Source: Candidatus Omnitrophota bacterium
GTDB taxonomy: Bacteria > Omnitrophota > Gorgyraeia > Duberdicusellales > 4484-171
Reading direction: 5' to 3'
Assembly: GCA_043815185.1 (NCBI GenBank)
Contig: JBDRJF010000001.1
Coordinates: 89,690 to 153,689, forward strand
Length of the DNA: 64,000 nucleotides
The notes under the pieces are model-generated. The model had not been told where the DNA came from, did not search any database, and saw nothing but the letters and a program-made list of their open reading frames with translations. The stretch's first letter is position 1. Each line of letters starts with the position of its first letter. A program made the translations under genes and the position numbers. Of the stretch, positions 7,040 to 41,135 are shown in pieces.

Positions 7040-8950
7040 TTAGTAGAGTTTTTCGATCTTGGTCTGGGGAAAGTAGTGGTTAATTATCTGATGATAATTA
7101 TAACCATTGTCGGCCATGCCCACTGCCCCATCCTGACACATACCGGCTCCGTGGCCAAATCCTGCTCCCCATAAAAAAAGCATTGAAGACTGGCCATCAG
7201 GAGATAATTTCCTTTCCAGCTTAAAAGCACTGCTCCTTAAGCGGTCAAAGTAATTTCTTATGGTTAAACTCCCCTTTAAATCTTTACTGCCACTGGAGGT
7301 AATGATTTCGATCTCGTTATAACGAAAACAATCTCCTCTCTTCTTGGGAAGAACAGCTTTTAAAGCATTGATTTCATACCCAAAGGCAATCAAAAAATCT
7401 TCTTGATCATAGACCCTTTGCCAGCGAAATTTACTGCGGCTATTTTTAAAACAAAAACTTATCTCCGGGCTATCAAACCAACGCTCCTGGCTATAGGCTG
7501 AATCGGGAATCTCTAAATTAAGTGTATCGCGCTTATTGACCAAATAGTCGCTCCGGCCAAAGACATCGGCCGCTAAACATCCGCCGCAATTAGCATGGAA
7601 AAGCGCTTCTATGGGATTATCTTGATAAACAATAATTTCACCTCTAGTATCTTTAATTGCCGCCTCAGTAGCTAAAACTTCGGCTGATATTCCCTGATAA
7701 ACCTGGCAATGCACCTGGGGGCAAAAATCAAAACCTTCATTTTTATGCCGCCCGAGGTTCCGATAGGCAAAAGTCCGCGCTGCCACAGCCTGGGCCCTGA
7801 GTGCTTGGGGATGGGCCTTAGCCGAAATTTCAGCTGATAAAACTCCGTAGAGGTATTCTTCGATTGTTAAGCTATTAATTAAGTTCAAAGCCCCATTGTT
7901 TATAACTACCTCTAGATCGCCGCGGTAGGCCCGATCAGCTTCAGTATACCAAAAGTCACCCTTACCAAAAATAAGATCTAAGACGTAAAATGATGATTTT
8001 CCTTCTTGCGAATCTTGAGCCACGATTTTGAGCGGGCCGCTAAAAGATGCGTATTTGCCTCCCTGTTCATAGTCACTTAAGACTATTTCCTCACCGCTGA
8101 CAATAAGGGTATAAAGTTTATTGGCCCTGGCCGGGAAAGAAACATCGGCACTGCTAATTAAGAATTTACTTCCGCAAAAAAAAGAAAACTTATTTAAATC
8201 TCTAGCTAGGCCGACTCTGACTAAAGGAATGTTTTCTTCCTGAAGGTAAACAGCTAGTTTAACTTTTTTCCTCTTGGCTTGCTGCTTTTCCTTTTGAGCC
8301 CTAAAGAAATCCTCACCTAAGCTCTGCTTCAAGGCCTTGAACTTTTTCTGAATTATTCCAACCTCGGGATAAAAATTTATTGCCTTCGAGAACAGCTTAT
8401 AAGCATCCTGATCTGCACCTTGCTCATAAAGGCACTGGCCCAAATAGTAATAAGCTAACCTTATACTGGAATCAAACTTAATCAGGGAGGAAAAATACTG
8501 GGCAGCTTTTTTATACTCGCCATTCCTACGGTAAATCTTTCCTAAACGAAAGTAAGCGATAGTATTGGGTTCTAACTTTAAGGATTTTGTGTAATTAGCT
8601 ATTGCCAGAGCCTCTTTACCTAAGTCTTCATAGATTAAACCGAGATAAAGAAAGTCCGGCCAACCTTTATCCTTCAGATTCTTAAAACTAATCAAGGCTT
8701 GCCTGCTTCTTCCGTTAAGAAATTCCAATTTTCCCCGGTATCGCAGCAGCTGAGGATTCTTGCTAAAAACCCTGGCCTTATTTAAAACATCAATAGCTTT
8801 AGCGTATTCCCCTGATTCTTTAAACAAAGCGGCAATGTCCAAGTAATCCTCAAGCGCTGTTTCTTTGCTCTGATGCGATAAGGATTTTGCCAATGAATTT
8901 GGCGGGAAGAATAATAACCCGGAGATTAAGAGTAAAATCAGGAATCGCAT
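7040..8950 (-). CDS. secreted TPR-repeat / SpoIID-LytB domain protein
   Basis: Signal peptide MRFLILLLISGLLFFPPNSLA, followed by TPR repeats across roughly aa 40-200. The C-terminal half has SpoIID motifs (RTFAYRN, HCQVYQG, HANCGG, GHGAGMCQDGA). Confidence 0.8.
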   Translation of the reverse strand: MRFLILLLISGLLFFPPNSLAKSLSHQSKETALEDYLDIAALFKESGEYAKAIDVLNKARVFSKNPQLLRYRGKLEFLNGRSRQALISFKNLKDKGWPDFLYLGLIYEDLGKEALAIANYTKSLKLEPNTIAYFRLGKIYRRNGEYKKAAQYFSSLIKFDSSIRLAYYYLGQCLYEQGADQDAYKLFSKAINFYPEVGIIQKKFKALKQSLGEDFFRAQKEKQQAKRKKVKLAVYLQEENIPLVRVGLARDLNKFSFFCGSKFLISSADVSFPARANKLYTLIVSGEEIVLSDYEQGGKYASFSGPLKIVAQDSQEGKSSFYVLDLIFGKGDFWYTEADRAYRGDLEVVINNGALNLINSLTIEEYLYGVLSAEISAKAHPQALRAQAVAARTFAYRNLGRHKNEGFDFCPQVHCQVYQGISAEVLATEAAIKDTRGEIIVYQDNPIEALFHANCGGCLAADVFGRSDYLVNKRDTLNLEIPDSAYSQERWFDSPEISFCFKNSRSKFRWQRVYDQEDFLIAFGYEINALKAVLPKKRGDCFRYNEIEIITSSGSKDLKGSLTIRNYFDRLRSSAFKLERKLSPDGQSSMLFLWGAGFGHGAGMCQDGAVGMADNGYNYHQIINHYFPQTKIEKLY

Positions 8951-8971
8951 AACTTTTTAAGAAAACAGTTT

Positions 8972-9796
8972 TTAAACCGGGTGGGCAAGCTTTTGCTTTC
9001 CTACTATAGGGATTCCCCATCTTTTTGCTAAAGACAAAAACTTATCTTTCTCTAAAATGATTACCTTACTATCCTCCAATACTAAGGCTGCTGCCCCGAT
9101 ACGCTTAAGGAGCTTTAATGTGGAAATTCCTACCACCGGAACATCAAAACGTAAATCCTGATTAGCTTTGGCGAATTTCAATATAAGGCATCCCTTACCA
9201 GCTAAGTTATAAACACGCTTGATGGTGTTATCAGTCCCTTCCAGAGATTCTAAAGCAACTACCCCTCTAGCCTTTACGCCTATAGTTTGTCCAACATCTA
9301 ATTCTACGAACTTGGATACTATATCTAAACCAAAATCAATATCTTTTACGGTTTCATTGGTTAACCTTAAACCATTGATCACCCCGGCTCCAGCTAGATC
9401 GTCCTTGAGATAAAGCGTAGAATCCAGGAACTTGACTCCCGTATTCTCTAAATAACTGATCATCTTCTCAAATATAGTGTGGGGGCGGAAATCATCAGTA
9501 TCACTCAACAAGGAAGTTAATTCTTGATCCCAATAACTCTTGCGGAAAATATATAGAGGGTTGATCTGGCCGGCCATGATAACTTGGCTAAGGCTCTCAT
9601 CCTTTAAGGCTCGGCGCAAATCCGCCAATGCCCCCACCGAAAACCAATAACACTTATCAACATACTGATTAATAGCCTTAAGGGTCTGCCCCTTAAAACA
9701 GAAAGCGATAACTTCACAACTCTTATTCTTTTCTTTGATTCTTTGGGCAAGAACTAAAGGCAGGAGGCGATTACCAGCAATAATTCCTAATCTCAT
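8972..9796 (-). CDS. lpxI: UDP-2,3-diacylglucosamine pyrophosphatase LpxI (DUF1009)
   Basis: N-terminus MRLGIIAGNRLLP, DVGQT, and position next to lpxA. Confidence 0.75.
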   Translation of the reverse strand: MRLGIIAGNRLLPLVLAQRIKEKNKSCEVIAFCFKGQTLKAINQYVDKCYWFSVGALADLRRALKDESLSQVIMAGQINPLYIFRKSYWDQELTSLLSDTDDFRPHTIFEKMISYLENTGVKFLDSTLYLKDDLAGAGVINGLRLTNETVKDIDFGLDIVSKFVELDVGQTIGVKARGVVALESLEGTDNTIKRVYNLAGKGCLILKFAKANQDLRFDVPVVGISTLKLLKRIGAAALVLEDSKVIILEKDKFLSLAKRWGIPIVGKQKLAHPV

Positions 9797-10670: not shown

Positions 10671-11990
10671 TTAAGCTTCCACCAGGGCAAACATAAGTTC
10701 AGCCTCGGCAACTACCTTCTCATCAACAAAAGCCTTGGTGATAACTGATCCGGTCTTGTGTCTTATTTTTCCAGAAACAACCTCTATAACTAGCTGGTCG
10801 CCCGGTACAACGGTTTTTCTAAATTTAATATTGTTGGCAGCCATAAAATAGGCCAGTTTGCCCTTATGTTCTTCGCAGGCCAGCATCAGCACTCCGCCAA
10901 CCTGTGCCATTGCTTCCACGATTAAAACACCAGGCATAATCGGTTTACCGGGAAAATGTCCCTGGAAAAAATACTCATTCATGGTGACACTCTTTATCCC
11001 CACTGCTTTCTTGCCCTTTTCAAGGTAAACTATTCTATCTACCAAGAGAAAAGGATATCGATGAGGTAATATCTGCATTATTTCTTGGGCATTAAGTTCT
11101 GGCTTTTGCGGGATATGAAGAGTTTGAGACCCTATTCCAGCGCTACGAGACCTTTCTTTGTATTTGCGCAATTTCTCCAATAATCTTATATTCAATGAGT
11201 GTCCGCCTCTTACGGCAATCACATGCCCTCTAACCGGACCGGCCAAATATAAGTCGCCGATTAAATCTAAAATTTTATGCTTAACAAACTCATCTTCAAG
11301 CCTCAACTCATTATCAAGAATCTTTTTATCCGACACAACCAGAGTATTCTTGTAGTTTGCTCCTTTTCCTAACCCCATGTTTAACAATGATTTAACCTCA
11401 GTATCTAAGCAAAAGGTTCGAGCCTCGTAAAGGTCAGTCTTTAAATCGTCGTTAATGGTTATATCAATGTAACCTGCGCCGACTATGGGATTATCATAAC
11501 TTAAAACATAAGATATACGCAGGCTATGATAAGGCAAAGCTACGATGCTGGCCGAATCTTCCTCAACCCATAAAGGTTCTCTTATTATTAAACGGTTTCG
11601 TATTGATTCCTGCTCCTGCCAGCCAACTTTTCTTATCGCCTCCACAAAATCTTTAGCGCTTCCGTCTAAACCAGGAACTTCGTCACCCCAAATATTTACC
11701 TGCAGATTATCAATACCCAAAAGATGTAAAGCTGCCATCAGATGCTCAACAGTATGAACATATACTCCGTTTGCACCTACAGAAGTGCGCCGTGGGAATT
11801 GCTCAGGATCTAGGACAGAATAAGAGCTTGCCTTAACTAAAGAAGAAGCCTCGATATCCTTCCTCAAAAAAGTTATTCCCGAATCTAGCGGTGCCGGCAG
11901 AAGTTCCAACTTAGTCTCCTTTCCGGTATGAAGTCCAATACCTTCTAATGATATCTTACTTTTAATGGTCCTTTGTTTATCCGCCTTCAT
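10671..11990 (-). CDS. lpxC/fabZ: bifunctional UDP-3-O-acyl-GlcNAc deacetylase / 3-hydroxyacyl-ACP dehydratase (LpxC-FabZ fusion)
   Basis: The N-terminal 280 aa are LpxC-like (GIGLHTG, TVEHLMAAL, HKILDLIGDL). The C-terminal 150 aa are FabZ-like (LPHRYPFLLVDR, FFQGHFPGKPIMPGVL). Confidence 0.9.
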   Translation of the reverse strand: MKADKQRTIKSKISLEGIGLHTGKETKLELLPAPLDSGITFLRKDIEASSLVKASSYSVLDPEQFPRRTSVGANGVYVHTVEHLMAALHLLGIDNLQVNIWGDEVPGLDGSAKDFVEAIRKVGWQEQESIRNRLIIREPLWVEEDSASIVALPYHSLRISYVLSYDNPIVGAGYIDITINDDLKTDLYEARTFCLDTEVKSLLNMGLGKGANYKNTLVVSDKKILDNELRLEDEFVKHKILDLIGDLYLAGPVRGHVIAVRGGHSLNIRLLEKLRKYKERSRSAGIGSQTLHIPQKPELNAQEIMQILPHRYPFLLVDRIVYLEKGKKAVGIKSVTMNEYFFQGHFPGKPIMPGVLIVEAMAQVGGVLMLACEEHKGKLAYFMAANNIKFRKTVVPGDQLVIEVVSGKIRHKTGSVITKAFVDEKVVAEAELMFALVEA

Positions 11991-28867: not shown

Positions 28868-28911
28868 AAATAAAAATGGTGTTCTGATCCTAAAGATAAA
28901 AACACCATTTT
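28868..28911 (-). terminator. intrinsic terminator candidate after the purF-like gene
   Basis: Minus strand: AAAATGGTGTT-17 nt loop-AACACCATTTTtatttaaag. The stem is AT-rich and the loop is large. Confidence 0.45.
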
Positions 28912-28941
28912 CTGCTTTAATTATATAAAATCCAGACGATT

Positions 28942-30390
28942 TTATTTTGATTGCTGATGGGCCGGGCAACTCGTGCCTTTACCTTCTGTTTGAGCTGGAC
29001 ACTTACCAGTCCAACAATAAAGACAAAGTTTTTCCTTGGGCAGACCGATCGCTTCAACCATATCGTCTACGGTTTGATACCTTAAAGTAGTAACCCCTAA
29101 ATCTCTGGCAATCCAGTCTACCATCTGCTTATATTTCTCAGAAGTGCAATCAGTATATTCACAAACATCTTCTAAATCATTACCTTCAATAGCTCGTATA
29201 GCTTTTCGAGCAGCAAGCTCATGGATACTACGCGTGGATAAGTTAAACCGGCAAGGGAACATTAAAGGGGGGCAAGCCGGCCTTACGTGAACCTCTTTGG
29301 CTCCCGAATCCCAGAATTTCTTTATGGTGAAATTCTTGAGCTGGGTTCCTCTTACTATAGAATCATCACAAACAACAATCTTGTTACCTTCAATTATCTC
29401 CTTTATGGGAATAAGCTTCATCTTAGCAACTAAATCACGTGTTTCTTGAGAAGGTGGAGTATAGCTTCGGCCATATCCCGGTGTATATTTTATCAAGGGT
29501 CTGCGGTAAGGACTACCGCTCTCCATGGCATAGCCTATTGCATGGGCAGTCCCGGAATCGGGGACTCCCGAAACTACATCTACCTTTAGATTTTTATCGC
29601 GCCGGGCCAGAATACGTCCGCATCTTTCTCTTACTACTTCGGTATTGATTCCCTCATAATCTGAGGCCGGAAATCCAGTATAAATCCATAAAAATGCACA
29701 GATTTGATTTGCTTCCCTGCCAGGTTTTTTCTCCTTCATTCCTTGCTCAGTTATCAGGATTATTTCACCCGGCCTTAAGTGCCTGATTATCTTAAAGTCA
29801 CTATTAGGGAAAGCGCAAGTCTCAGAAGTAACAGCCAAAGCATCATCCCGTTCACCAACCACAAGGGGTGTATAACCGAATCGATCTCTGGCTGCATATA
29901 TTCCATCCTTATGCAGCAATAGCAGCGAACAGGAACCCTTTATCTTGTCAAACATCTTCTCTATACCGTCGACCAAATCATTCCCCTGGCTGATCAGTTT
30001 TGCTATCAGCTCGGTAGTATTAACCCCGCCCTTGCTTACTTCAGTAAAAGATACTCCCTGATTAAAAAGACTGGCTGTTAATTCTTCGGTATTTTCGATA
30101 AATCCGTTGGTAACTAAACAAAAGGGGCCAAATTTAGAGTTTAAATACATCGGCTGCTCTTCAAAAGCGCTAATCACCCCAATACCTTTATTACCTTTCA
30201 TCTGCTTGTAGTCATCATGGAATTTTGACTTGAATTGGCTCTGAGATATTTTATGTATTTGCCGTATAAGCTCTTTTCCCAAAACTGCCATACCCCCATA
30301 TTCGGTTCCTAGATGGGAGTGATAATCGGTACAATAAAATAAAAGATCCATGCAATCCTTTTGTGAAACTACGCCACAAATTCCGCTCAT
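28942..30390 (-). CDS. PurF-like class II (Ntn) glutamine amidotransferase / phosphoribosyltransferase
   Basis: MSGI-CGVV gives an N-terminal Cys after a short propeptide. It has the PRTase loop VVCDDSIVRGTQ, and C-terminal CLYCWTGKCP resembling the Fe-S type PurF CxxCFTGKYP. The glutaminase-domain R/G motifs are diverged. Confidence 0.7.
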   Translation of the reverse strand: MSGICGVVSQKDCMDLLFYCTDYHSHLGTEYGGMAVLGKELIRQIHKISQSQFKSKFHDDYKQMKGNKGIGVISAFEEQPMYLNSKFGPFCLVTNGFIENTEELTASLFNQGVSFTEVSKGGVNTTELIAKLISQGNDLVDGIEKMFDKIKGSCSLLLLHKDGIYAARDRFGYTPLVVGERDDALAVTSETCAFPNSDFKIIRHLRPGEIILITEQGMKEKKPGREANQICAFLWIYTGFPASDYEGINTEVVRERCGRILARRDKNLKVDVVSGVPDSGTAHAIGYAMESGSPYRRPLIKYTPGYGRSYTPPSQETRDLVAKMKLIPIKEIIEGNKIVVCDDSIVRGTQLKNFTIKKFWDSGAKEVHVRPACPPLMFPCRFNLSTRSIHELAARKAIRAIEGNDLEDVCEYTDCTSEKYKQMVDWIARDLGVTTLRYQTVDDMVEAIGLPKEKLCLYCWTGKCPAQTEGKGTSCPAHQQSK

Positions 30391-30460
30391 TTCAGCTCCT
30401 CCATTATTATTCCCATTATTATTTTAAATACTCCCATCGCGCTACTTAATAGCTTACAGT

Positions 30461-31978
30461 TTATGTCACAAAAAGACTCTTGGAAGAAAAGTTCGGTGCA
30501 CTAGTAAGATTAACTCCCAGTTTACGTAACCCTGCCTCATCTCCCGGGGTAGGCATATGAGTCGTATGTACCTCACAACCTCCGAGCTCTTTAAGTTTCT
30601 CCATAGCCAATTGAGCTGTAGGATTTGTAGCGCTACTGATACTCAAAGCAATTAAAGCCTCTTCCAAATCTAAACTTATTGTCTTTGTACCGGAAAGATT
30701 CTTTTTCAACCTTCCTATTGATTCGATTATAGTCGGTGATAAAAGGTGGATCTTATCCGGTATCTCACCTAGCTTCTTTATAGCATTAAATACAAGACTA
30801 GCTGTTGCATGCATGAGATCTGAGTTCTTACCGGTAACAATAGAACCATCTCTAAGTTCTATGGCCGCACCACAAAAGACACCTTCGTGTCCCTTCTTTT
30901 TCTCTTCAGCCTCTTTAAGCGCATCGTTCGCGGGTTTAACTACCCGGCGATCTTCGGGGCGAAGATTAAGCTCCTCCATAAGTTGTTCGACTCTCTGAAC
31001 TGTTCCTTTGTCGCTAAAACCTATGGCATATTCGCATCTATACCTAAAAAACCGGCGTATAATCTCCTGTTTGGCAGCATCTCTGACTACCGCATCATCG
31101 ATAATTCCGAAACCAGCTCTATTCACCCCCATGTCGGTAGGAGATTTATATATTGCTTCATCTCCGGTGATTTTCTCCAATATCCGCTCAAGAAGAGGGA
31201 AAGCATCAACATCCCGATTGTAATTAATTGCTGTCTTCTGGTAAGTTTCCAAGTGAAAAGGATCAACAAGGTTAAAGTCTCTTAGATCAGCTGTAGCTGC
31301 TTCATAAGCTATGTTAACCTCGTGCTTAAGAGGAAGATTCCAAATGGGAAAGGTCTCGAACTTTGCGTAACCTGCCTTTACTCCTCTTTTATATTCATGA
31401 TAAAGCTGACTAAGGCAAGTAGCAAGTTTCCCGCTTCCTGGGCCTGGGCCGGTAACTACTACTAAGGGCTTCTCGGTCTCAATATAAGTATTCGCACCGT
31501 AGCCTTCATCGCTTACAATTAAATCGACATCTGTAGGGTAACCCTTGGTAAAAAAGTGAGTATAAACTCTAATGTTTCTGCGTTCTAATTTATTTTTGAA
31601 AATTATAGCTGAGGCCTGATTATCAAAACGGGTTATCACCACTGCTGCTATATTAATATCCCAGCTTCTTAAATCATCGATAAGTTTTAAGGCATCGACA
31701 TCGTAGGTAATGCCAAAATCTGCCCGGACCTTCCTTCTTTCAATGTCACCGGCATAGATACAGAGGATAATGTCTGCTTTACCTTTAAGCTTCTGCAAAA
31801 GTCTCATTTTTACGTTAGGGCCAAATCCCGGTAAAACCCTTGAAGCATGGTAATCAAAAACAATCTTGCCGCCAAACTCTAGATAAAGTTTATTATTAAA
31901 CCGCTCAACCCGTTCTAATATAGCGCCTGTCTGCTCTTTAAGGTATTGTTCATTATCAAAACCTGACCGCTTTAGCAT
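30461..31978 (-). CDS. DUF1846 / UPF0371 family protein (P-loop containing)
   Basis: [15 protein letters not shown]...[25 protein letters not shown] and [15 protein letters not shown] closely follow the UPF0371 pattern as I recall it from streptococcal proteins. Confidence 0.8.
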
Positions 31979-32047
31979 CGCTACCCCTTTTAATATTATC
32001 GTCTTTTATTTACTGGTAAAACTTATGCGAGTCATTTCAAGTTTTCT

Positions 32048-35000
32048 TTACACTATTTCTCTATGATACTCCTGAAGAGATTTTAGTGAGATTTTCTTGT
32101 TCTTAAGAGCTTCTATTCCTTCAAGACTGGCGGAAGCCGCAGCCATAGAGGTAATATAAGGAACCTTCTGTTGTATGGCCATAATACGGATATAACTATC
32201 ATCAGTCTTGCTATCCCTTCCCACCGGTGTATTTATGATAATGTGAATGTCTCCGTTTTTAATTGCATCAGCAAGGTTAGGTCTTCCTTCATGAAGCTTC
32301 TTCACCTCTGTATTATTTATTCCGTTTTCCTTAAGAAAGCGGCTAGTTCCTATTGTAGCATAGATATTAAACCCGAGTTTGCTAAACTCTTTGGCTATGT
32401 TAAGTAACTCCGGTTTGTCTTTGTCGGTTACGGTAAGCAAAGCATTTCCCTCTATAGGAAGCTTTAAGTTAGCTGCTGCTTGAGCTTTATAAAAAGCAAT
32501 CCCAAAGGTATCGCCGATTCCCATCACCTCTCCGGTAGCCCTCATCTCAGGGCCAAGTAAAGGGTCTACTTCCGGAAACATATTAAAGGGGAAAACTGCC
32601 TCTTTAACTCCTACGTGAGAAATCTTACGGGGCTTCTGAAGCTCGGGAAAATCTTTTATCTTTTTGCCCACCATTAATTGAGTTGCTATCCGTGCTATGG
32701 AGAGTCCCATGACTTTTGAAACTAACGGTACCGTCCGAGATGCCCGAGGATTAGCTTCCAGAACATATACTTTATCATCACAGATAGCGTACTGGATATT
32801 CATCAATCCAACAACCTTAAGTTCCTTTGCTATTTGAACTGTGTACTTCTTAATAAGCTTTAGATGCTCCTCTTTTATGGTTCTGGTGGGAATCGCACAA
32901 GCAGAATCGCCGGAGTGGACACCGGCAAGTTCTATATGTTCCATCACCGCTGCAACATATACATCCTCTCCGTCAGAAAGAGCATCGACTTCTGCCTCAA
33001 CAGCATGTTCCAGGAATCTGTCAATAAGCATAGGAAAATCGGGGCTCACTTTGATTGCTTCCTGAGCATACTTTTCTAGCATCGTCTGATTATAAACAAT
33101 TTCCATACCCCTGCCTCCCAAAACAAAAGAAGGGCGTACCATAAGCGGGTATCCGATCTTATTGGCAATTTTTATCGCCTCATCTAAAGAACGGGCTGTA
33201 CCGCTCTCGGGCTGGGGAATATCCAGGGCAATCAAGCTTTGCCTAAAATATTCTCGATCTTCGGCTAAACGAATACTTTCCGGCGAAGTGCCGATAATTT
33301 TTAAACCGTTATCTTTCAACTCCTGAGCTATATTCAAAGGAGTTTGGCCGCCAAACTGGACAATAACTCCTTCGGGCTTTTCTTTTTCATAGATAGTTAA
33401 CACATCTTCTACGGTCAAAGGTTCAAAATAGAGTTTGTTAGAAGTATCATAATCAGTAGATACTGTCTCAGGGTTACAATTTATCATAATTGATTCATAG
33501 CCTTCATCCCGCAGGGCAAAAGCAGCATGAACACAGGTATAATCAAACTCTATTCCCTGACCGATCCGGTTAGGTCCTCCGCCTAAAATTAATATTTTCT
33601 TATTTGGCGATACCGACACCTTATCTTCTCCGATATAGGTTGAATAATAGTAAGCGGCATTTTCTACTCCGCTAACCGGAACAACATCGTAACGACCGTT
33701 CTTCTTAAGCCTAATTCTCCTTTCTCTTACTTCTTTCTCCTTCAGCTTAAAAAGCTGAGCTAAATACTTATCTGAGAATCCCAGCTCTTTTGCCTTAATC
33801 AGCTCTCCATCAGCTAAATCTTTCCATTTATTTTTAATTATCGCTTCTTCGAAATCGACAAGCTCCTTCATCTCCCGAATAAACCAAGGGTGGATATAGG
33901 TAACTTTATGAAGCTCCTCAACAGAAATACCTCTGCGTAAAGCTTCATAAATTAAGAATATTCGCTCACTGGAGGGAGCGCTTAACTTGCCTTTTAACTT
34001 GGACAGAGGAAAAGCTTTGAATTCTTCAACACCTAAACCGTACCGGCCTATTTCCAAAGAACGAATAGCTTTCTGAAAAGCCTCTTTGAATGTCTTACCG
34101 ATACTCATTACCTCACCAACAGCCTTCATCTGGGTTCCTAAAATATCCTTGGCTTGAGGAAACTTCTCAAAGGCCCAGCGGGCAAATTTAACAACCACAT
34201 AATCACCGCTAGGTTCATACTTCTCCAAAGTCCCTTCTTTCCAGTAAGGAATCTCATCCATTGTTAGACCGGCAGCTAACTTTGTTGAAATACGGGCTAT
34301 CGGAAAGCCGGTTGCTTTGGAAGCAAGAGCTGAAGAACGCGATGTTCTGGGGTTAATTTCGATAACTACTATTCGATCATCCTTAGGGTTGTGAGCAAAC
34401 TGAATATTTGTTCCGCCAACAACCCCGATTGCATCAACTATCTTGTAGGAATATTCCTGCATTTTATCCTGTAACTCTTTTTTTACGGTAAGCATCGGGG
34501 CAGAACAAAAGCTATCTCCGGTATGAACACCCATAGCATCAATATTTTCGATAAAGCATACGGTAATTTTCTGATTTTTATGATCCCGTACCACTTCCAG
34601 TTCTAATTCTTCCCAGCCGATAACTGCTTCTTCAACTAGAACTTGATGAACAAGACTTGCCGCTAAGCCACGAGTTACAATAATCCTTAATTCCTCTACA
34701 TTGTAAGCAATTCCTCCTCCGGTTCCGCCCATGGTGTAAGCCGGCCTTAATACCACCGGGTAGCCTATCTTCTGGGCTATAGCCTCAGCGGCTTCAACCG
34801 AATGGCTAATTTCCGATTCAGGAAGAGGAATTCCTAATTTCTTCATTGTCTCTTTAAAAATCAGACGATCTTCCCCGCGTTCAATAGCATCAACTTTAAC
34901 CCCGATAATTTTAACCTCGTATTTGGCTAAAATTCCTGCTTTATGAAGACTGGAGGAAAGATTAAGGCCGGTTTGCCCGCCTAAATTAGGCAGCAGAGCA

Positions 35001-35251
35001 TCGGGACGTTCCCGCTTAATAATGGCCTCTAAGCTTTCGATAGTGAGCGGCTCAATATAAGTTTTATCAGCCATACCGGGGTCGGTCATAATCGTTGCCG
35101 GGTTGGAATTAACCAAAACAACTTCATAGCCTTCTTCTTTTAAAGCCTTGCAGGCTTGAGTACCAGAATAATCAAATTCACAGGCTTGCCCGATAATTAT
35201 CGGCCCGGAACCAATAATTAAAACTTTTTTAATATCCTCATATCGCGGCAT
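32048..35251 (-). CDS. carB: carbamoyl-phosphate synthase large subunit
   Basis: 1067 aa with duplicated ATP-grasp halves. N-terminus VLIIGSGPIIIGQACEFDYSG; second half ILILGGGPNRIGQGIEFDY. Confidence 0.95.
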   Translation of the reverse strand: MPRYEDIKKVLIIGSGPIIIGQACEFDYSGTQACKALKEEGYEVVLVNSNPATIMTDPGMADKTYIEPLTIESLEAIIKRERPDALLPNLGGQTGLNLSSSLHKAGILAKYEVKIIGVKVDAIERGEDRLIFKETMKKLGIPLPESEISHSVEAAEAIAQKIGYPVVLRPAYTMGGTGGGIAYNVEELRIIVTRGLAASLVHQVLVEEAVIGWEELELEVVRDHKNQKITVCFIENIDAMGVHTGDSFCSAPMLTVKKELQDKMQEYSYKIVDAIGVVGGTNIQFAHNPKDDRIVVIEINPRTSRSSALASKATGFPIARISTKLAAGLTMDEIPYWKEGTLEKYEPSGDYVVVKFARWAFEKFPQAKDILGTQMKAVGEVMSIGKTFKEAFQKAIRSLEIGRYGLGVEEFKAFPLSKLKGKLSAPSSERIFLIYEALRRGISVEELHKVTYIHPWFIREMKELVDFEEAIIKNKWKDLADGELIKAKELGFSDKYLAQLFKLKEKEVRERRIRLKKNGRYDVVPVSGVENAAYYYSTYIGEDKVSVSPNKKILILGGGPNRIGQGIEFDYTCVHAAFALRDEGYESIMINCNPETVSTDYDTSNKLYFEPLTVEDVLTIYEKEKPEGVIVQFGGQTPLNIAQELKDNGLKIIGTSPESIRLAEDREYFRQSLIALDIPQPESGTARSLDEAIKIANKIGYPLMVRPSFVLGGRGMEIVYNQTMLEKYAQEAIKVSPDFPMLIDRFLEHAVEAEVDALSDGEDVYVAAVMEHIELAGVHSGDSACAIPTRTIKEEHLKLIKKYTVQIAKELKVVGLMNIQYAICDDKVYVLEANPRASRTVPLVSKVMGLSIARIATQLMVGKKIKDFPELQKPRKISHVGVKEAVFPFNMFPEVDPLLGPEMRATGEVMGIGDTFGIAFYKAQAAANLKLPIEGNALLTVTDKDKPELLNIAKEFSKLGFNIYATIGTSRFLKENGINNTEVKKLHEGRPNLADAIKNGDIHIIINTPVGRDSKTDDSYIRIMAIQQKVPYITSMAAASASLEGIEALKNKKISLKSLQEYHREIV

Positions 35252-35275: not shown

Positions 35276-35340
35276 TCCAAAAATAGAAAAAGCGCCCCTT
35301 CTACATCATTGGTTTAGAAAGGACGCCATCATCCACATTG
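35276..35340 (-). promoter_or_regulatory. carB leader: conserved hairpin plus U-tract motif (copy Y)
   Basis: Minus strand: GGATGATGGCGTCCTTTCTAAACCAATGATGTAGAAGGGGCGCTTTTTCTATTTTTGG. The 12-bp stem is complete only on the minus-strand RNA (two G-U pairs). A related copy lies at 41041..41101. Confidence 0.6.
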
Positions 35341-35346
35341 GGATTG

Positions 35347-35375
35347 ATTATCCGATAAATTTGGCTAATAGTCAA
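35347..35375 (-). promoter_or_regulatory. sigma70-like promoter TTGACT-17-GATAAT for carB
   Basis: The minus strand reads TTGACTattagccaaatttatcgGATAAT, with an A/T-rich stretch upstream. Confidence 0.5.
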
Positions 35376-35468
35376 GAAAAAAAATAACCTTTTTTTTATC
35401 TAAAAAATCTTAAAAAAGCTAATATTTATAGGCATTCTTGCATGGTGTAAAAAAAAATAAAAAACTAC

Positions 35469-35497
35469 TTGACAAGTGTAAAGTAATAGTTTACACT
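35469..35497 (+). promoter_or_regulatory. sigma70-like promoter TTGACA-17-TACACT for the HTH-glnA gene
   Basis: TTGACAagtgtaaagtaatagttTACACT. It is overlapped by the inverted repeat at 35472..35500. Confidence 0.45.
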
Positions 35498-35500
35498 TGT
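35472..35500. promoter_or_regulatory. perfect 11-bp inverted repeat ACAAGTGTAAA-N7-TTTACACTTGT (candidate operator)
   Basis: Read directly. It spans the -35/-10 spacer and the -10 of the glnA promoter. Confidence 0.6.
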
Positions 35501-35512
35501 AATGTAGAATGA

Positions 35513-35666
35513 AGCTTAGGTTTACAGAACAAAGTGAAAGTAAACCTTTAGCTGAATTCACCCGAAACATTCTTTAAAAATTTCATAGAAATTTTTAAAG
35601 TATTTAGATGTTTCGGGATAATTCGCACTTATCACTTATGTTCACTTCGTTCCGTAAGTGATGTGC
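35513..35666 (+). promoter_or_regulatory. structured 5' UTR of HTH-glnA (three adjacent hairpins)
   Basis: P1 at 35513..35553 (AGCTtAGGTTTAC/GTAAACCTttAGCT). P2 at 35554..35624 (GAATT, CCCGAAACA and a 12-bp CTTTAAAAATTT stem). P3 at 35625..35666 (GCACttATCACTTA/TAAGTGATGTGC). The Shine-Dalgarno sequence is left unpaired. Confidence 0.45.
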
Positions 35667-35683: not shown

Positions 35684-37219
35684 ATGGAACAGGAATATTT
35701 AAGCCCGACTCAAGCCGCTAAAATTCTAAAAATATCCCGTCAAGCAGTTATTGAACGCATAAAACATGGAGCCCTTTACGCTGAGCGGGTGGGAAAACGA
35801 TATATAATCCCCCGGGGTGAACTTCCCACCGAAGATGCTCTCTTAAAAGATCGGAAAACCAAAACAAACATTTCCTTGGAGAGTAAGAAGAGCCGGAAGG
35901 ATATGATAAGAAAAGTTTTAGAAAAGGTGCATCGGGAAAATATAAAGACCATACAGCTCTGGTTTGTGGATATCTTAGGAACCTTAAAATGCGTTTCGAT
36001 TACCCAAAGAGAATTAAAAGATGCTTTAGGCCATGGCAAGGGGTTTGACGGTTCTTCTGTTACCGGTTTTGCCGAAGCTGAAGAAAGTGATATTGTTGCT
36101 TTGCCAGATCCTGCCACTTTTAAAGTCTTGCCTTGGACGATTGAAACCGGTCCTATTGCCAGAATGCTCTGCGATATACTCAGCCCTGATTTTACCCCTT
36201 ATGCTGGTGATAGCCGCTATGTTCTTAAAAGAGCCTTGGCCCGGGCAAAGAAGTTAGGCTTTACTTTCTATGTCGGACCAGAGTTAGAATACTTTTACTT
36301 TAAGTCTGCTCGAAAACCAGAAATTATAGACGAAGGTTCTTACTTTGAGCTAATACCCAACGATTTAGCCAATACCTTAAGAAATAAAACCGTAAAAGTC
36401 TTAGAAGAGATGGGTATACCGATGGAGGCAACCCACCATGAAGTTGCCCCTTCACAACATGAAATTGACCTAAAATATAACGATGCTCTTACTATGGCTG
36501 ACAACGTAATAACTTGTAAATATGTGATCAAGGAAATTGCCCAACAGAATGGCGTCTATGCTACTTTTATGCCCAAACCCCTCTTTGGAGTGAATGGTTC
36601 AGGAATGCATGTTCACCAATCGTTGTTTAAGGGCAGCCAAAATTCTTTCTTTGATAAAAAAGACAAGTATCACCTTTCATCCGTGGCCAAAGGATTCATT
36701 GCTGGTGAACTAAAGCATGCCCGGGAAATTTCCTCTCTAACTGCTCAGTGGGTAAATTCCTATAAACGTCTGGTTTCCGGGTATGAAGCGCCGGTATATG
36801 CTTCCTGGGCTCAAAAAAACCGTACTGCTCTGCTGCGAGTTCCGGTATACCGGCCGAGAAACGAAAAAGCAACCCGGGTAGAATTACGCTGCCCTGACCC
36901 CGCTTGCAACCCCTACTTAGCCTTTGCCGTAATGCTAGCAGCCGGGTTGGAAGGTGTAGAAAAGAAATATCAGCTTCCTCCTGCTGTTGAACCTAATATC
37001 TACCGGATGGCTATGGAAGAAAGAGAACGAAGGGGGCTTACCTCACTTCCCGGGAATCTTTTTGAAGCCATTATTGAAACTGAAAAAAGTACCTTTGTGC
37101 GGGAAACTTTGGGAGCCCACATCTTCAACAGATTCTTGTTCAATAAAAAGAAAGAATGGGAAGATTACCGGATCCAGATTACTGAACATGAAATTAAGAA
37201 ATACCTTCCCCTGCTCTAG
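35684..37219 (+). CDS. glnA: type I glutamine synthetase with N-terminal excisionase/MerR-type HTH domain
   Basis: ATG 35684 follows an AAGGAGG Shine-Dalgarno sequence (the track start GTG 35663 is rejected). Residues 4-48 (EYLSPTQAAKILKISRQAVIERIKHGALYAERVGKRYIIPRGEL) look like HTH_17. From about aa 85 it is a full GS (QLWFVDILG, GSGMHVHQS, NRTALLRVP). Confidence 0.85.
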   Translation: MEQEYLSPTQAAKILKISRQAVIERIKHGALYAERVGKRYIIPRGELPTEDALLKDRKTKTNISLESKKSRKDMIRKVLEKVHRENIKTIQLWFVDILGTLKCVSITQRELKDALGHGKGFDGSSVTGFAEAEESDIVALPDPATFKVLPWTIETGPIARMLCDILSPDFTPYAGDSRYVLKRALARAKKLGFTFYVGPELEYFYFKSARKPEIIDEGSYFELIPNDLANTLRNKTVKVLEEMGIPMEATHHEVAPSQHEIDLKYNDALTMADNVITCKYVIKEIAQQNGVYATFMPKPLFGVNGSGMHVHQSLFKGSQNSFFDKKDKYHLSSVAKGFIAGELKHAREISSLTAQWVNSYKRLVSGYEAPVYASWAQKNRTALLRVPVYRPRNEKATRVELRCPDPACNPYLAFAVMLAAGLEGVEKKYQLPPAVEPNIYRMAMEERERRGLTSLPGNLFEAIIETEKSTFVRETLGAHIFNRFLFNKKKEWEDYRIQITEHEIKKYLPLL

Positions 37220-37247
37220 GGCTTAAACTGAAGAGAATTTGCGATAT

Positions 37248-37285
37248 AAAAAGGCGCCTCCTCAAAACCGGAGGCGCCTTTTATT
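37248..37285. terminator. bidirectional intrinsic terminator between convergent glnA and gdhA
   Basis: aaaaaGGCGCCTCC-tcaaaacc-GGAGGCGCCttttatt. It has an A-run upstream and a T-run downstream. Confidence 0.8.
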
Positions 37286-37310: not shown

Positions 37311-38666
<1,356 letters not shown>

Positions 38667-38679
38667 TTAAAATATTTTA

Positions 38680-40098
38680 TTACTTTTGAGAAAGATGTCT
38701 AATTATTCCTTGGCATGCCTTCTTTGCCATACCCATAGCTTCGATGACTGTTCCTTCTCCTCCGACAATATCTCCTCCGGCAAATACACCCTTTACAGAA
38801 GTCTCCATACTTTCCGAATCTACTTCCAGATCGCCGTATTTATCAACTTTTAAATCCGGAGTAACACTAGTCAAGACTCTGTTGGCGCCTAAACCCACTG
38901 CCACTATAGCTAAATCGCAATGATTTTCAAAATCACTGCCTTCAATAGGTAAAGGCCTCCTTCGCCCCGATTCATCCGGCTCACCCAAGCGGCACTCTAA
39001 AGATCTTATTTTCTTCACAAAACCTGAGCCATCACTGCTAAACTCCTGGGGCTGAACTAAAAATTTAAAAAGAACTCCTTCTTCCTTAGCATGCTCAATC
39101 TCTAAGCGCCTTGCCGGCATCTCAATTTCTCTACGTCGATAAAAGATTGTTACGCTCGGCTTAATTCCCTTTATCTTCTGCAGGCGCAAAGCAACTCGGG
39201 CCGCATCCATAGCGGTATTACCTCCACCGATAACAACCATATTCTCACCGACATTAATCGGAGTATGGAATTGAGGGAATTTATATGCTGACATAAGATT
39301 TACCCGAGTTAGAAACTCATTAGCCGAATAAACATTGCAGAAATTCTCACCCTTTATCTTTAAAAAAGATGGCACACCAGCGCCTAAACCTAAAAATACC
39401 GCTGAAAACCTCTCTCTGAAAAGTTCATCCAAAACCTTGGTTCTTCCGATAATAAGATTAGGTATAAATTCCACTCCTAACTTTTTAAGATAGTCTAGCT
39501 CAAAGTCTAAAATATCCCGCGGTAACCTGAAAGGCGGAATGCCATATCTTAAGACTCCTCCGGTTTTATGTAACCCTTCAAAAATAACTGATTGTATACC
39601 CTGGCGGCTTAATTCTCCAGCTACAGACAAACCAGCCGGCCCGGAGCCCACAATTGCTACTTTAAATTTAGAAAACCTTCCTTTTTTTTGCAAAGGAACT
39701 TCTAAATTATTCCTGATCCCGTAATCACCGACGAACCTCTCTAGAAAATGAATGTTAATTGCTTCCTCGGAAGCAAAAGGTAAACCCTTTTTACTAAATA
39801 CACAAGTCTTCCGGCATTGATACTCAGCCGGACAAACCCTTCCGCAGATAGAAGGAAAATCATTCTTTTCTCTAATCTTAAAATAAGCTCCCTCATAGTC
39901 TTTCTCTGTAATCTGGGCGATGAATTTCTTTATATCTATTTCTACCGGACAACCATCAATACAAGTAGGATTCTTACATTGAATACAGCGCTTAGCTTCA
40001 AGAAGAGCCTCTTCTTCATTGTAGCCAAGAGCAACTTCTTCAAAGTTACTTGCTCTAACTTTCGCCTCTAATTCTCTTATTCTTACCGGTTCTTTCAT
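38680..40098 (-). CDS. nfnB: GltD-like NADPH-dependent oxidoreductase, large subunit (NfnB / SudA type)
   Basis: N-terminal Cys clusters CIQCKNPTCIDGCP, VAIVGSGPAGLSVA, and a second GGGNTAMD fold. Paired with a PyrK-like subunit. Confidence 0.75.
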   Translation of the reverse strand: MKEPVRIRELEAKVRASNFEEVALGYNEEEALLEAKRCIQCKNPTCIDGCPVEIDIKKFIAQITEKDYEGAYFKIREKNDFPSICGRVCPAEYQCRKTCVFSKKGLPFASEEAINIHFLERFVGDYGIRNNLEVPLQKKGRFSKFKVAIVGSGPAGLSVAGELSRQGIQSVIFEGLHKTGGVLRYGIPPFRLPRDILDFELDYLKKLGVEFIPNLIIGRTKVLDELFRERFSAVFLGLGAGVPSFLKIKGENFCNVYSANEFLTRVNLMSAYKFPQFHTPINVGENMVVIGGGNTAMDAARVALRLQKIKGIKPSVTIFYRRREIEMPARRLEIEHAKEEGVLFKFLVQPQEFSSDGSGFVKKIRSLECRLGEPDESGRRRPLPIEGSDFENHCDLAIVAVGLGANRVLTSVTPDLKVDKYGDLEVDSESMETSVKGVFAGGDIVGGEGTVIEAMGMAKKACQGIIRHLSQK

Positions 40099-40101
40099 TT
40101 C

Positions 40102-40163
40102 ATGGATACAATCTATCGGTTGAGGCTTAGCCTCAACCGGCTCCGCCTTCGGCGGAGATTGTA
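40102..40163 (-). repeat. copy B of the two-hairpin intergenic element (first copy at 18856..18916)
   Basis: Minus strand: TACAATCTCCGCCGAAGGCGGAGCCGGTTGAGGCTAAGCCTCAACCGATAGATTGTATCCAT. It occupies essentially the whole nfnA-nfnB spacer. Confidence 0.7.
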
Positions 40164-40167
40164 TACC

Positions 40168-40998
40168 TCATAACTTGTAAAGATTACAAATATGTTTCTC
40201 TTTGTCCTCGTATACCTTATTCCTCTTAATTAGCTCATCCCAATCGATTAGAGAAGCATCAAATTCCGGACCATCTACACAAGTAAATTTGACTACTCCA
40301 TCCACGGTAACCCGACAACCTCCGCACATACCAGTAGCATCAATCATCAATGAATTTAATGATACTAAAGTCTTTATCCCCGAATCTTTAGTGACTAACG
40401 AAACTTTTTTCATCATCGGGACCGGGCCAACAGCATAAATAAGACCATGCTGCTCCTTACTAATAAGTTCTTTTAATATATCGGTAGTAAATCCCTTCTG
40501 ACCGCAAGAGCCGTCGTCAGTAGCGATAAGTAGCTCATCAGAAACTGTTTTTAGCTCCCCTTCTAAGATTAAGAGATCTTTTGTCCTTGCTCCCAGTATA
40601 GTAGTCACCTGATTCCCGGCAGCCTTTAACTCTCTAGCTGCCGGATAGATCTCGGCAATACCGACCCCTCCTCCTACTAAAATTACCTTCCCGTATTTTT
40701 TTATCTCGGTATGGTGGCCTAAGGGGCCAACTAAAGCGTAGAGGGACTCACCGATCTCTAAGCGGCCTAGGAGCTTAGTAGTCAACCCTACCTCTTGGAC
40801 AATTAAGGTGATAGTGCCGTCTTCTGTATCTTTCTCAACTACGGTTAACGGCACTCTTTCCCCGACTTCCGATACCATCAAAATTACGAATTGACCCGGC
40901 TTTGCTTTTTCAGCAATATCGGGAGCGACTACCTTTAATTGAGTAATCCTTACCCCTAAAGCATCAACTAAGATATTCTTTTCCACTATTTTTGCCAT
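40168..40998 (-). CDS. nfnA: PyrK-like FAD/[2Fe-2S] electron-transfer subunit (NfnA / SudB type)
   Basis: Ferredoxin-reductase fold (GQFVILM, VGGGVGIA) and C-terminal MCGGCRV...CVDGPEF. Confidence 0.75.
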   Translation of the reverse strand: MAKIVEKNILVDALGVRITQLKVVAPDIAEKAKPGQFVILMVSEVGERVPLTVVEKDTEDGTITLIVQEVGLTTKLLGRLEIGESLYALVGPLGHHTEIKKYGKVILVGGGVGIAEIYPAARELKAAGNQVTTILGARTKDLLILEGELKTVSDELLIATDDGSCGQKGFTTDILKELISKEQHGLIYAVGPVPMMKKVSLVTKDSGIKTLVSLNSLMIDATGMCGGCRVTVDGVVKFTCVDGPEFDASLIDWDELIKRNKVYEDKEKHICNLYKL

Positions 40999-41040: not shown

Positions 41041-41101
41041 CATAAAATAAAAAAAGCGCCTTTTCTTTTACATCTTGTATAAAGAAAAGACGCCTTCGTC
41101 C
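41041..41101 (-). promoter_or_regulatory. nfnA-nfnB-gdhA leader: conserved hairpin plus U-tract motif (copy X)
   Basis: Minus strand: GGACGAAGGCGTCTTTTCTTTATACAAGATGTAAAAGAAAAGGCGCTTTTTTTATTTTATGG. The 13-bp stem has a G-U at the same position as copy Y. Confidence 0.6.
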
Positions 41102-41107
41102 TTCCTT

Positions 41108-41135
41108 AATATAACAATACAAATTAAATTGTCAA
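41108..41135 (-). promoter_or_regulatory. sigma70-like promoter TTGACA-16-TATATT immediately upstream of leader motif X
   Basis: The minus strand reads TTGACAatttaatttgtattgtTATATT, lying 18 nt downstream of the stop of the preceding gene. Confidence 0.5.

Follow-up and report, generated by a model that had tools for sequence, protein, structure and literature searches.

Two short transcript leaders in the 64,000-nucleotide (nt) stretch of Candidatus Omnitrophota DNA analyzed here, hereafter the window, are probably ANTAR-type transcription attenuators of nitrogen genes, in a single-hairpin form. One of these, copy Y, precedes the carbamoyl-phosphate synthase gene carB, and the other, copy X, precedes an operon of the genes nfnA, gltD and gdhA. 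Read in this manner, they represent a known mechanism, ANTAR antitermination, in a new phylum, where it serves an undescribed phylum-wide regulon in a minimal, promoter-proximal form with one hairpin. The original prediction had recognized a hairpin with a U-tract in the carB leader and a related copy ahead of the second operon, and had treated the motif as possibly new; we place it instead in the ANTAR-target class of Ramesh et al. 2012 (PMC3369931) and Ueki & Lovley 2010 (PMC2995071).

Both leaders lie on the minus strand, and all coordinates are window positions. Their components, with notes on conservation among the orthologous loci L001-L007, which were fetched around CarB homologues of 81-89% identity, are as follows:

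35375..35347, minus strand: copy Y, sigma-70-type promoter TTGACT-17-GATAAT of the carB operon; the -35/-10 pair and the stretch up to the hairpin are kept in L001 and L003-L006
35334..35321, minus strand: copy Y, antiterminator hairpin P2, GGATGATGGCGTCC = GGAUGAUGGCGUCC (GGAU-GAUGGC-GUCC)
35327..35291, minus strand: copy Y, intrinsic terminator hairpin of 13 bp including G-U pairs, with an 11-nt loop and a 5' arm that overlaps P2
35291..35279, minus strand: copy Y, U-tract UUUUUCUAUUUUU, (nearly) invariant among orthologues
41135..41108, minus strand: copy X, sigma-70-type promoter TTGACA-16-TATATT of the nfnA-gltD-gdhA operon (11/12 matches, TG ahead of the -10 hexamer), kept in L001 and L003
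41101..41088, minus strand: copy X, antiterminator hairpin P2, GGACGAAGGCGTCT = GGACGAAGGCGUCU (GGAC-GAAGGC-GUCU)
41094..41056, minus strand: copy X, intrinsic terminator hairpin with a 5' arm that overlaps P2, delimited by its fold and a gapped stem pattern
41055..41042, minus strand: copy X, U-tract UUUUUUUAUUUUAU

All the parts that had been read in the carB leader, namely promoter, hairpin, U-tract, Shine-Dalgarno sequence and start codon, are present on the minus strand, with the Shine-Dalgarno sequence situated between the U-tract of copy Y and the carB ATG at 35251; the ATG of the NfnA-like gene, at 40998, lies downstream of copy X. The whole elements, 35279..35334 (Y) and 41042..41101 (X), are the only two in the window. 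Their paralogy is borne out by a common 19-mer, GGAYGAWGGCGTCYTTTCT, which occurs exactly twice in the 64 kb against an expectation of 0.12 (0 of 100 shuffles had two matches), and the gapped stem pattern occurs twice against an expectation of 0.00. The loop half CAA.GATGTA, which had been counted as part of the common motif, drops out of it, being not conserved in the orthologues of copy X. As minus-sense RNA the leaders fold at -27.1 kcal/mol (Y, z = -3.8) and -23.3 kcal/mol (X, z = -4.6), whereas the plus-sense folds reach only -13.7 and -14.2 kcal/mol. Since the plus-sense folds are so much weaker, the earlier argument from G-U pairs, that the stem works as RNA in the carB direction, holds. 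Furthermore, both copies sit between a promoter and a start codon, rather than after a stop codon and before the next promoter as an operon-end terminator would. No same-strand gene lies upstream of carB, where the neighbor is a divergent glutamine synthetase (GS) gene, and copy Y is therefore not an operon end. In L004, which has another gene order, a separate terminator precedes the carB promoter, which argues that the leader hairpin is not a displaced operon-end terminator either. Copy Y is thus, as originally proposed, an RNA-level intrinsic terminator within the 5' leader of carB.

In both copies the 3' part of P2 doubles as the 5' base of the terminator, so that the two structures are mutually exclusive, as they are in ANTAR targets. 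Two further traits of such targets are found here, a six-nt loop with G at position 4 (GAUGGC in Y, GAAGGC in X) and association with nitrogen-metabolism genes. P2 of copy Y, with its 4-bp stem and six-base loop, begins 12 nt past the -10 hexamer; that of copy X begins 6 nt past it, at or adjacent to the predicted 5' end of the transcript. The original prediction had seen almost no room for a classical antiterminator. It had overlooked that the 5' flank is itself the antiterminator 5' arm: GGAY pairs with GUCY over the six-base loop, and the resulting hairpin qualifies as an antiterminator because its 3' arm starts the terminator stem. Folded alone, P2 amounts to -4.2 kcal/mol in Y and -4.6 kcal/mol in X (range over the P2 hairpins folded, -2.8 to -4.6 kcal/mol), and hence it could not beat the terminator unless held.

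The mechanism that we propose for these leaders would run as follows. RNA polymerase would start at the strong sigma-70 promoter and, within about 0-6 nt, would transcribe the 14-nt P2, with its 4-bp stem and six-base loop RANGGC bearing G4, of which the loop end and 3' arm (GGCGUCY) double as the first bases of the terminator 5' arm. With P2 unbound, the 12-17-bp terminator (-23 to -27 kcal/mol) would displace it (about -4 kcal/mol), and transcription would stop at the U-tract some 55-60 nt from the start, making the default state OFF. An active ANTAR-domain dimer on the P2 loop would keep GGCGUCY in P2; of the terminator stem, no more than the weak, A/U-rich upper part could then form, apart from the U-tract, and polymerase would continue into carB-DUF1846-GATase or nfnA-gltD-gdhA. 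The transcription start sites and the binding of an ANTAR protein to the RNAs of X and Y are here predicted from sequence.

The carB leader is kept in six of the seven orthologous loci (L001-L006), with the -10 region, the next 12 nt, the hairpin GGAUAAAGGCGUCC (GGAU-AAAGGC-GUCC) and the U-tract almost invariant, and with compensatory changes in the terminator stem (L001, L003-L006); beyond the U-tract there is no conservation, and the length varies from about 10 to 110 nt. The loops of these orthologues carry A1, unlike copy Y. L007 (81% CarB identity) has a different-looking leader, yet it contains AAC-AAUGGC-GUU overlapping a terminator, the first stem pair having gone from G-C to A-U. The nfnA leader in L001, its near-duplicate L002 and L003 is AGACGAAGGCGUCU (AGAC-GAAGGC-GUCU), with a different loop, and the outer P2 pair of copy X, G-U in the window, is A-U in these orthologues. 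A separate peculiarity of carB is that the 12 nt between its -10 hexamer and P2 (CAWTYCCAATGT; 35338..35346), which include the ATG of a short frame, are nearly invariant in nine carB leaders, a conservation that the ANTAR model leaves unexplained.

A pattern that combines the small hairpin with the terminator base, run against 185,579 species genomes, returned at least 118 loci, where about 3 would be expected by chance according to our own estimate. The counts on homologues given here and below refer to the matches listed among these loci; six Exiguobacterium matches were excluded from the statistics. Of the four P2 pairs, the pattern specified three and left the other, the fourth, free on its 5' side; at loop position 4 it required only a purine. 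The module thus collected has the consensus (R)GAC-AAAGGC-GUC(Y), followed by UUU, the terminator and U's. Its loops (n=109) are AAAGGC (80), GAAGGC (14), AAUGGC (8), AAAAGC (4), GAUAGC (2) and GAUGGC (1), so that position 1 is A in 92/109 and G in 17/109, and position 4, despite the freedom allowed by the pattern, is G in every homologue counted save the four AAAAGC and two GAUAGC. The free, outermost P2 pair is AU in 51, GC in 34, GU in 9 and something else in 13 of 107 homologues. Covariation as high was reached in 0 of 500 shuffles; the true partner was paired in 97% of cases versus 35-68% with the partner slid; and the association of G/A with C/U gave a Fisher p of 3e-15, with phylogeny ignored. 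At this position G-U occurs in 9-10 cases and A-C in 2, and such tolerance of G-U with rarity of A-C indicates pairing in RNA rather than a DNA palindrome.

A covariance model, R1, was built from 107 homologous leaders, with the window excluded, and gave these scores:

41048..41102, minus strand: window copy X, 56.0 bits, E = 7e-9
35284..35335, minus strand: window copy Y, 44.7 bits, E = 1.4e-6
Modules of L126 and L127, which lie outside the search pattern: 32-34 bits, E = 2e-4 to 5e-4
37246..37285: an ordinary bidirectional terminator of the window, 16 bits, E about 0.6-1

Scanned over the window, R1 picks out exactly X and Y. Its scores argue that the module is not a generic terminator family and that the window holds just two members of it.

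The genes downstream of the module provide the next line of evidence. A same-strand open reading frame (ORF) starts within 150 nt of it in 110 of the 119 matches listed. Clustered and read from sequence, these ORFs are glutamate-synthase-like (36), GS I (7), PyrG (6), NfnA-like (5), CarB (5), Amt (5), NrtA-like binding proteins (5), GdhA (4), NirB (3), GS III (3) and NagB (2), and PurF, PurL, AsnB and GltB also occur. Pfam confirmed one representative each of the glutamate-synthase-like, PyrG, Amt, GdhA, GS III, NagB, PurF, PurL and porin groups. Thus, the module does not turn up at random operon ends: among the matches listed, nearly all copies precede nitrogen or glutamine genes. The two targets in the window conform to this, as carB and nfnA-gltD-gdhA are by their Pfam content both tied to nitrogen and glutamine metabolism, a connection that had been drawn at the outset.

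The matches come from Omnitrophota (many of them labelled "Planctomycetia"), Nitrospira, Desulfobacterales, Syntrophales, beta- and gammaproteobacteria, Atribacterota and Clostridia. In Omnitrophota, 26 of 32 have a near-consensus sigma-70 promoter that ends 6-23 nt (mostly 6-13) before P2, without an upstream hexaloop. In the other phyla about two-thirds carry a first hairpin, P1, of the kind CAC-AAYGRC-GUG, 15-30 nt upstream (e.g. gCAC-AAUGGC-GUGc); this second hexaloop makes them the published dual-hexaloop ANTAR target. Where a promoter ends 6-13 nt ahead of P2, there is no room for such a recruitment hairpin. The single-hairpin promoter-proximal form was also observed beyond Omnitrophota (L023, L094, L021, L086, L080, L120), namely before pyrG in Auribacterota and before the GS III gene and gltB in metagenome-assembled genomes (MAGs) of Lachnospiraceae/Oscillospiraceae. 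A P1 displaced to the terminator tip (AC-AAUGAA-GU in carB orthologues, GU-AACGAA-AC in nfnA orthologues) was considered as well. Tip hexaloops occur in 13/35 Omnitrophota-type leaders versus 8.1 +/- 2.4 in shuffles (9 of 200 shuffles reach 13) and are missing from both window copies; the enrichment being weak and confounded by phylogeny, we do not claim this feature.

The scan also bore on the annotation of public records. The contig titled 'Methanosarcinales archaeon' (L015, JAIWAR010000001.1) is the same record as L005, whose gene order matches that of the window minus gdhA, and twelve contigs of 'uncultured Planctomycetia' MAGs bear Omnitrophota-type leaders and genes (L008, L012, L019, L044, L054, L056, L073, L089, L095, L111, L115, L124); both taxonomic labels look wrong. 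The excluded Exiguobacterium matches (L018, L047, L061, L097, L117, L121) are pyrB leaders that fit the pattern (GAUAAAGGCGUCCC plus a terminator). By Rfam, L018 is a true PyrR attenuator, scoring 56.1 bits where the gathering score is 54; the other five are near-identical to it with the same pyrB-like ORF downstream. The resemblance is coincidental, a separate PyrR/pyrB class, and it is a caution for searches that use only a pattern.

The regulator is suggested by the genomic context of the homologues. An ANTAR-domain gene lies within the fetched flanks of at most 8 kb in 34 of the at least 118 loci, mostly directly upstream on the same strand, and its type varies with the lineage: GAF-ANTAR in Desulfobacterales and related organisms, GAF-GAF-ANTAR in Nitrospira, and NasT-like REC-ANTAR in betaproteobacteria, where the NasT-like genes adjoin a GAC-AAUGGC-GUC module (L013, L031, L096). 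In the Omnitrophota locus L059 the motif, glnN and a GAF-ANTAR gene follow each other in one operon (Pfam ANTAR, E = 2.4e-22). A search with this protein filled all 120 clusters listed, of 7,994 matches, with proteins of about 233 residues that are 73-100% identical; the named ones among these clusters are all from Omnitrophota. In L126 and L127, which represent two more lineages, an island comprises glnN, a GAF-ANTAR gene, the gene of a 282-residue protein, amt, PII, an HTH_8 protein gene, gltB and gltD. Its leaders are canonical dual-hexaloop attenuators, several with loops starting with G, and it also holds the module GGAU-AAAGAC-GUCC or GGAU-GAGGAC-GUCC. Tandem attenuators were noticed in the glnN and gltB leaders of L126 and the glnN leaders of L127 and L059, in which a canonical dual-hexaloop module comes right after the promoter and a single-hexaloop module 12-60 nt past the first U-tract. 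The leaders concerned are:

L126: 5521..5830, 8705..8880 and 11468..11740
L127: 5555..5855 and 8699..8992
L059: 3440..3600, minus strand

The ANTAR protein proposed to act on the window leaders is most probably this conserved GAF-ANTAR protein of about 233 residues, which the source genome would be expected to encode. Its GAF domain is nearest to that of PtsP/EI-Ntr (3trc, 3ci6), and its ANTAR domain to those of EutV (6wsh), Rv1626 and NasR. The GAF domain of EI-Ntr responds to glutamine and 2-oxoglutarate. From this kinship we propose that the signal is nitrogen status, probably sensed, by analogy with EI-Ntr, as glutamine and/or 2-oxoglutarate.

Among characterized systems, the closest counterpart is GnfR of Geobacter sulfurreducens, a REC-ANTAR protein that binds CAGGCAANGGCGCC (GGC-AANGGC-GCC), a site overlapping terminators of nitrogen genes (PMC2995071). 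Both the binding and the gnfR-dependent readthrough were shown experimentally (Ueki & Lovley 2010, PMC2995071). The likeness lies in the same AANGGC six-base loop on the 5' side of a promoter-proximal terminator before nitrogen genes. There are differences too: the GnfR stem is 3 bp of GGC/GCC where the module here has GAY/GUC; GnfR targets have RpoN-dependent promoters, whereas the window leaders have sigma-70-type ones; and GnfR is a phosphorylated response regulator, whereas the Omnitrophota candidate is a GAF-domain protein. In the eut leaders, P2 has the consensus AGCAANGRRGCUY at the 5' base of the terminator, with loop positions 1 (A) and 4 (G) critical (Ramesh et al. 2012, PMC3369931). 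The leaders of EutV/EutW in Enterococcus faecalis thus share with ours a P2 that overlaps the terminator 5' base, a six-base loop with a critical G4 and exclusive structures, and in them a dimeric ANTAR protein lifts the termination that otherwise prevails, as would be the case here. ANTAR regulons in general are dominated by nitrogen genes, including those of glutamate, glutamine and arginine synthesis (PMC3369931). A crystal structure revealed one EutV dimer on a single hexaloop, and single-hexaloop sites were raised as a possibility (Walshe et al. 2022, PMC8934654). NasR of Klebsiella (NIT-ANTAR, acting on nasF) and NasT (REC-ANTAR) likewise antiterminate at a hexaloop hairpin in leaders of nitrogen-assimilation genes; their nitrate/nitrite signal, nas/nir targets and two-hairpin leaders set them apart from the window leaders.

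A known motif of another kind was sought in Rfam. At the gathering threshold, the window and 18 homologous loci yielded only tRNAs and the one true PyrR attenuator of Exiguobacterium, and hence nothing at either leader; in permissive E-value mode nothing at the two leaders rose above sub-threshold noise, weak PyrR and PyrG-leader matches included. The former (RF00515) scored 21.7 bits for Y and 16.8 bits for X against a gathering score of 54, with the alignment on the terminator only; the latter (RF02371) scored 16.5 bits, where the gathering score is 65, and covered only the 3' half of the model. The leaders therefore belong to neither family. The silence of cmscan is explained by there being no matching Rfam model for the ANTAR-target class. 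The pyrG leader of Bacillus subtilis and the PyrR attenuators do resemble the window leaders in being promoter-proximal terminators in very short leaders of pyrimidine-pathway genes, but the former acts by non-templated poly-G addition and the latter by PyrR binding to a different loop.

Several observations count against an ANTAR reading of X and Y. 1) Loop position 1 is G in both copies, as opposed to the A of ANTAR targets and of GnfR sites in particular. An A at this position is important for NasR. A loop with G1 can moreover close to a tetraloop; in copy Y, G1 can pair with C6 to give an alternative of 5 bp plus tetraloop. 2) Both copies lack P1. No hexaloop hairpin is found within 160 nt upstream of copy Y, and the only one upstream of copy X is 72 nt away, inside the upstream coding sequence. 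The eut leaders, in contrast, need a P1 a few nt upstream, and a longer linker between P1 and P2 abolishes antitermination; P1 is thought to recruit the EutV dimer before it moves to P2 (PMC8934654). 3) The covariation evidence comes from a single free pair, with statistics that ignore kinship. 4) The regulon mixes genes of nitrogen limitation (amt, glnN) with the glutamine-consuming carB, pyrG, purF and purL and with gdhA; because genes of limitation and of sufficiency stand together, the sign of the response is unclear. 5) Neither the 64-kb window nor any of the seven orthologous loci L001-L007 contains an ANTAR gene, and a check of accession neighborhoods for nine named GAF-ANTAR proteins against the window CarB (100% identical to MFH1519072.1 of a Candidatus Omnitrophota MAG) placed none of them in the same MAG.

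The last point, like the lone hairpin and the loop G1, would suit a reading of the module by a factor without an ANTAR domain, be it an RNA-binding protein of some other type or a small RNA pairing with GGCGUCYUUUC. We regard this as improbable: the identical 12-mer lies directly downstream of ANTAR genes in 34 loci among the matches listed, the module matches the binding-tested GnfR site, in L059 it heads an operon that contains the GAF-ANTAR gene, and there is no sign of a small RNA. The trans-acting factor envisaged in the original prediction is hence best explained as a protein, given that the module adjoins ANTAR genes, and its small-RNA version falls away.

For carB, translation might be coupled to attenuation, with a ribosome on a near-leaderless mini-ORF (AUG UGG AUG AUG GCG UCC ... 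UGA) lying over the terminator 5' arm and blocking the hairpin. Its ATG, 9 nt past the -10 hexamer, is kept in 9/9 carB leaders, and the frame stays open to end in or at the terminator loop (MWMMASFLNQ*, MWIKASLC*, MWIKASFLLTMK*). We give this little credence, since a start codon at this place is missing from copy X and from most other Omnitrophota leaders, a Shine-Dalgarno sequence is lacking, short open frames are common in A/T-rich sequence, and the element common to X and Y would go unexplained; it could at best be an extra layer on carB. It is just as doubtful that we are dealing with leaky terminators free of signal-dependent control, or with a generic terminator family, even if a hairpin with a U-tract would in itself be an ordinary intrinsic terminator. 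The modules are always in 5' leaders and never at operon ends, L004 has its separate terminator before the carB promoter, the 5' arm that does not belong to the terminator is conserved and covaries, R1 gives the ordinary terminator of the window 16 bits against 45-56 for X and Y, and the genes downstream are, among the matches listed, overwhelmingly nitrogen genes.

A repressor might instead bind the conserved GGAYGAWGGCGTCY as DNA, the operator being a 4-6-4 inverted repeat around +1 to +15 and the terminator constitutive or partial; this appears more doubtful still. Such a repeat does stand at a typical repressor position, and the divergent glnA encodes a GS fused to a helix-turn-helix (HTH) domain. 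Against this, the glnA promoter palindrome is quite different, the element lies far from promoters and beside a second RNA hairpin in other phyla, and the covarying pair tolerates G-U and not A-C, an RNA signature. Least credible is the nucleotide-sensing termination raised in the original prediction, whether by reiterative purine addition at the start site pairing with the pyrimidine-rich 5' arm, as in B. subtilis pyrG, or by pausing at the U-tract sensitive to uridine triphosphate: for all that carB is a pyrimidine-pathway gene behind a promoter-proximal terminator, that Omnitrophota pyrG genes bear the same leader and that Rfam gives the weak PyrG-leader and PyrR matches, these scores fall far under the gathering scores, neither a G-run nor any other homopolymer stands at the predicted starts of X and Y, what is conserved is a specific hairpin with a covarying outer pair, and this leader is shared by amt, gdhA, glnN, nagB and glutamate-synthase genes, devoid of nucleotide logic, as well as by pyrG, purF and purL, in many phyla.

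The genes behind the two leaders, as assigned by Pfam, are:

32048..35251, minus strand: carB, large subunit of carbamoyl-phosphate synthase, first gene of carB - DUF1846 - GATase_7
30461..31978, minus strand: DUF1846 gene, 505 residues
28942..30390, minus strand: GATase_7 gene, class-II glutamine amidotransferase-domain protein, 482 residues
40168..40998, minus strand: NfnA-like gene
38680..40098, minus strand: GltD/NfnB-like gene
37311..38651, minus strand: gdhA, glutamate dehydrogenase

The operon of copy X, nfnA-gltD-gdhA, spans 37311..40998 (minus strand), about 5.8 kb upstream of the carB leader, and has the same gene order in L001 and L003; an exact-sequence look-up of the window NfnA-like protein found no record. 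The carB trio (28942..35251) has no adjacent carA, and carB-DUF1846-GATase_7 is kept in L001-L006 and carB-DUF1846 in L007, so the DUF1846 and GATase_7 proteins may be an alternative glutamine-hydrolysing partner of CarB. A generic scan of the window for any hexaloop plus terminator module gave 9 matches versus about 2 in shuffles, of which, besides X and Y, just 28870..28913 (minus strand) is plausible, if weak. This A/U-rich hexaloop hairpin, AGAAA-AUGGUG-UUUUU, follows the GATase_7 gene, ahead of a gene that is hisG in relatives, and overlaps a terminator made up of GGUGUU...GAACACC and a U-tract. Probably it does no more than end the carB operon, but it could be a degenerate hisG attenuator.

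The divergent glnA (35684..37219, plus strand) has features of its own. An N-terminal HTH_17 (excisionase/MerR-like) domain of about 75 residues is fused to a GS type I core, and the fusion is retained in L001, L003, L005 and L006. Its promoter, TTGACA-17-TACACT (region 35465..35507), sits within an inverted repeat with 21-nt arms, CTACTTGACAAGTGTAAAGTA / TAGTTTACACTTGTAATGTAG, kept in L001 and L003. The arrangement resembles an operator through which the gene would regulate itself, perhaps via the HTH domain of its own product, so that a single protein would play the parts of both GlnR and GS. The glnA 5' leader (35522..35657, plus strand) contains an almost continuous nested hairpin of about 136 nt, with three inverted-repeat pairs, just ahead of the Shine-Dalgarno sequence; it is single-copy in the window and missing from the much shorter leader of L003, and may represent either an inserted element or a regulatory structure peculiar to the lineage.

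With regard to the wider phylum, it is conceivable, although we would put it somewhat short of an even chance, that minimal ANTAR attenuators, each with a single hexaloop hairpin starting no more than a few nt from the 5' end of the transcript, govern a broad nitrogen/glutamine regulon in Omnitrophota and probably also in some Auribacterota and Clostridia. The proposed regulon comprises carB, pyrG, purF, purL, gdhA, nfnA-gltD, glnN, amt, nagB and gltB-like genes. If this is true, ANTAR antitermination works in vivo without the P1 recruitment hairpin found essential for EutV, and the kinetic race with the terminator would have to be won by other means, e.g. an abundant regulator, terminators with longer loops, or recruitment to the promoter or the 5' end. 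These leaders bear on a question left by Walshe et al. 2022, that of the single hexaloop as a co-transcriptional ANTAR site: they look like natural cases of it, and dozens of them, with a strong promoter right up against P2 and no P1, now offer test substrates. No Rfam model matched these modules, and searches for two hairpins would skip the single-hairpin class; a model of one hairpin plus terminator, such as R1, recovers them. To our knowledge, Omnitrophota have no cultured members. For this phylum, a GAF-ANTAR protein with a PtsP-like sensor, together with an RNA module before at least 10 kinds of nitrogen and glutamine genes, would constitute the first concrete model of nitrogen gene regulation.

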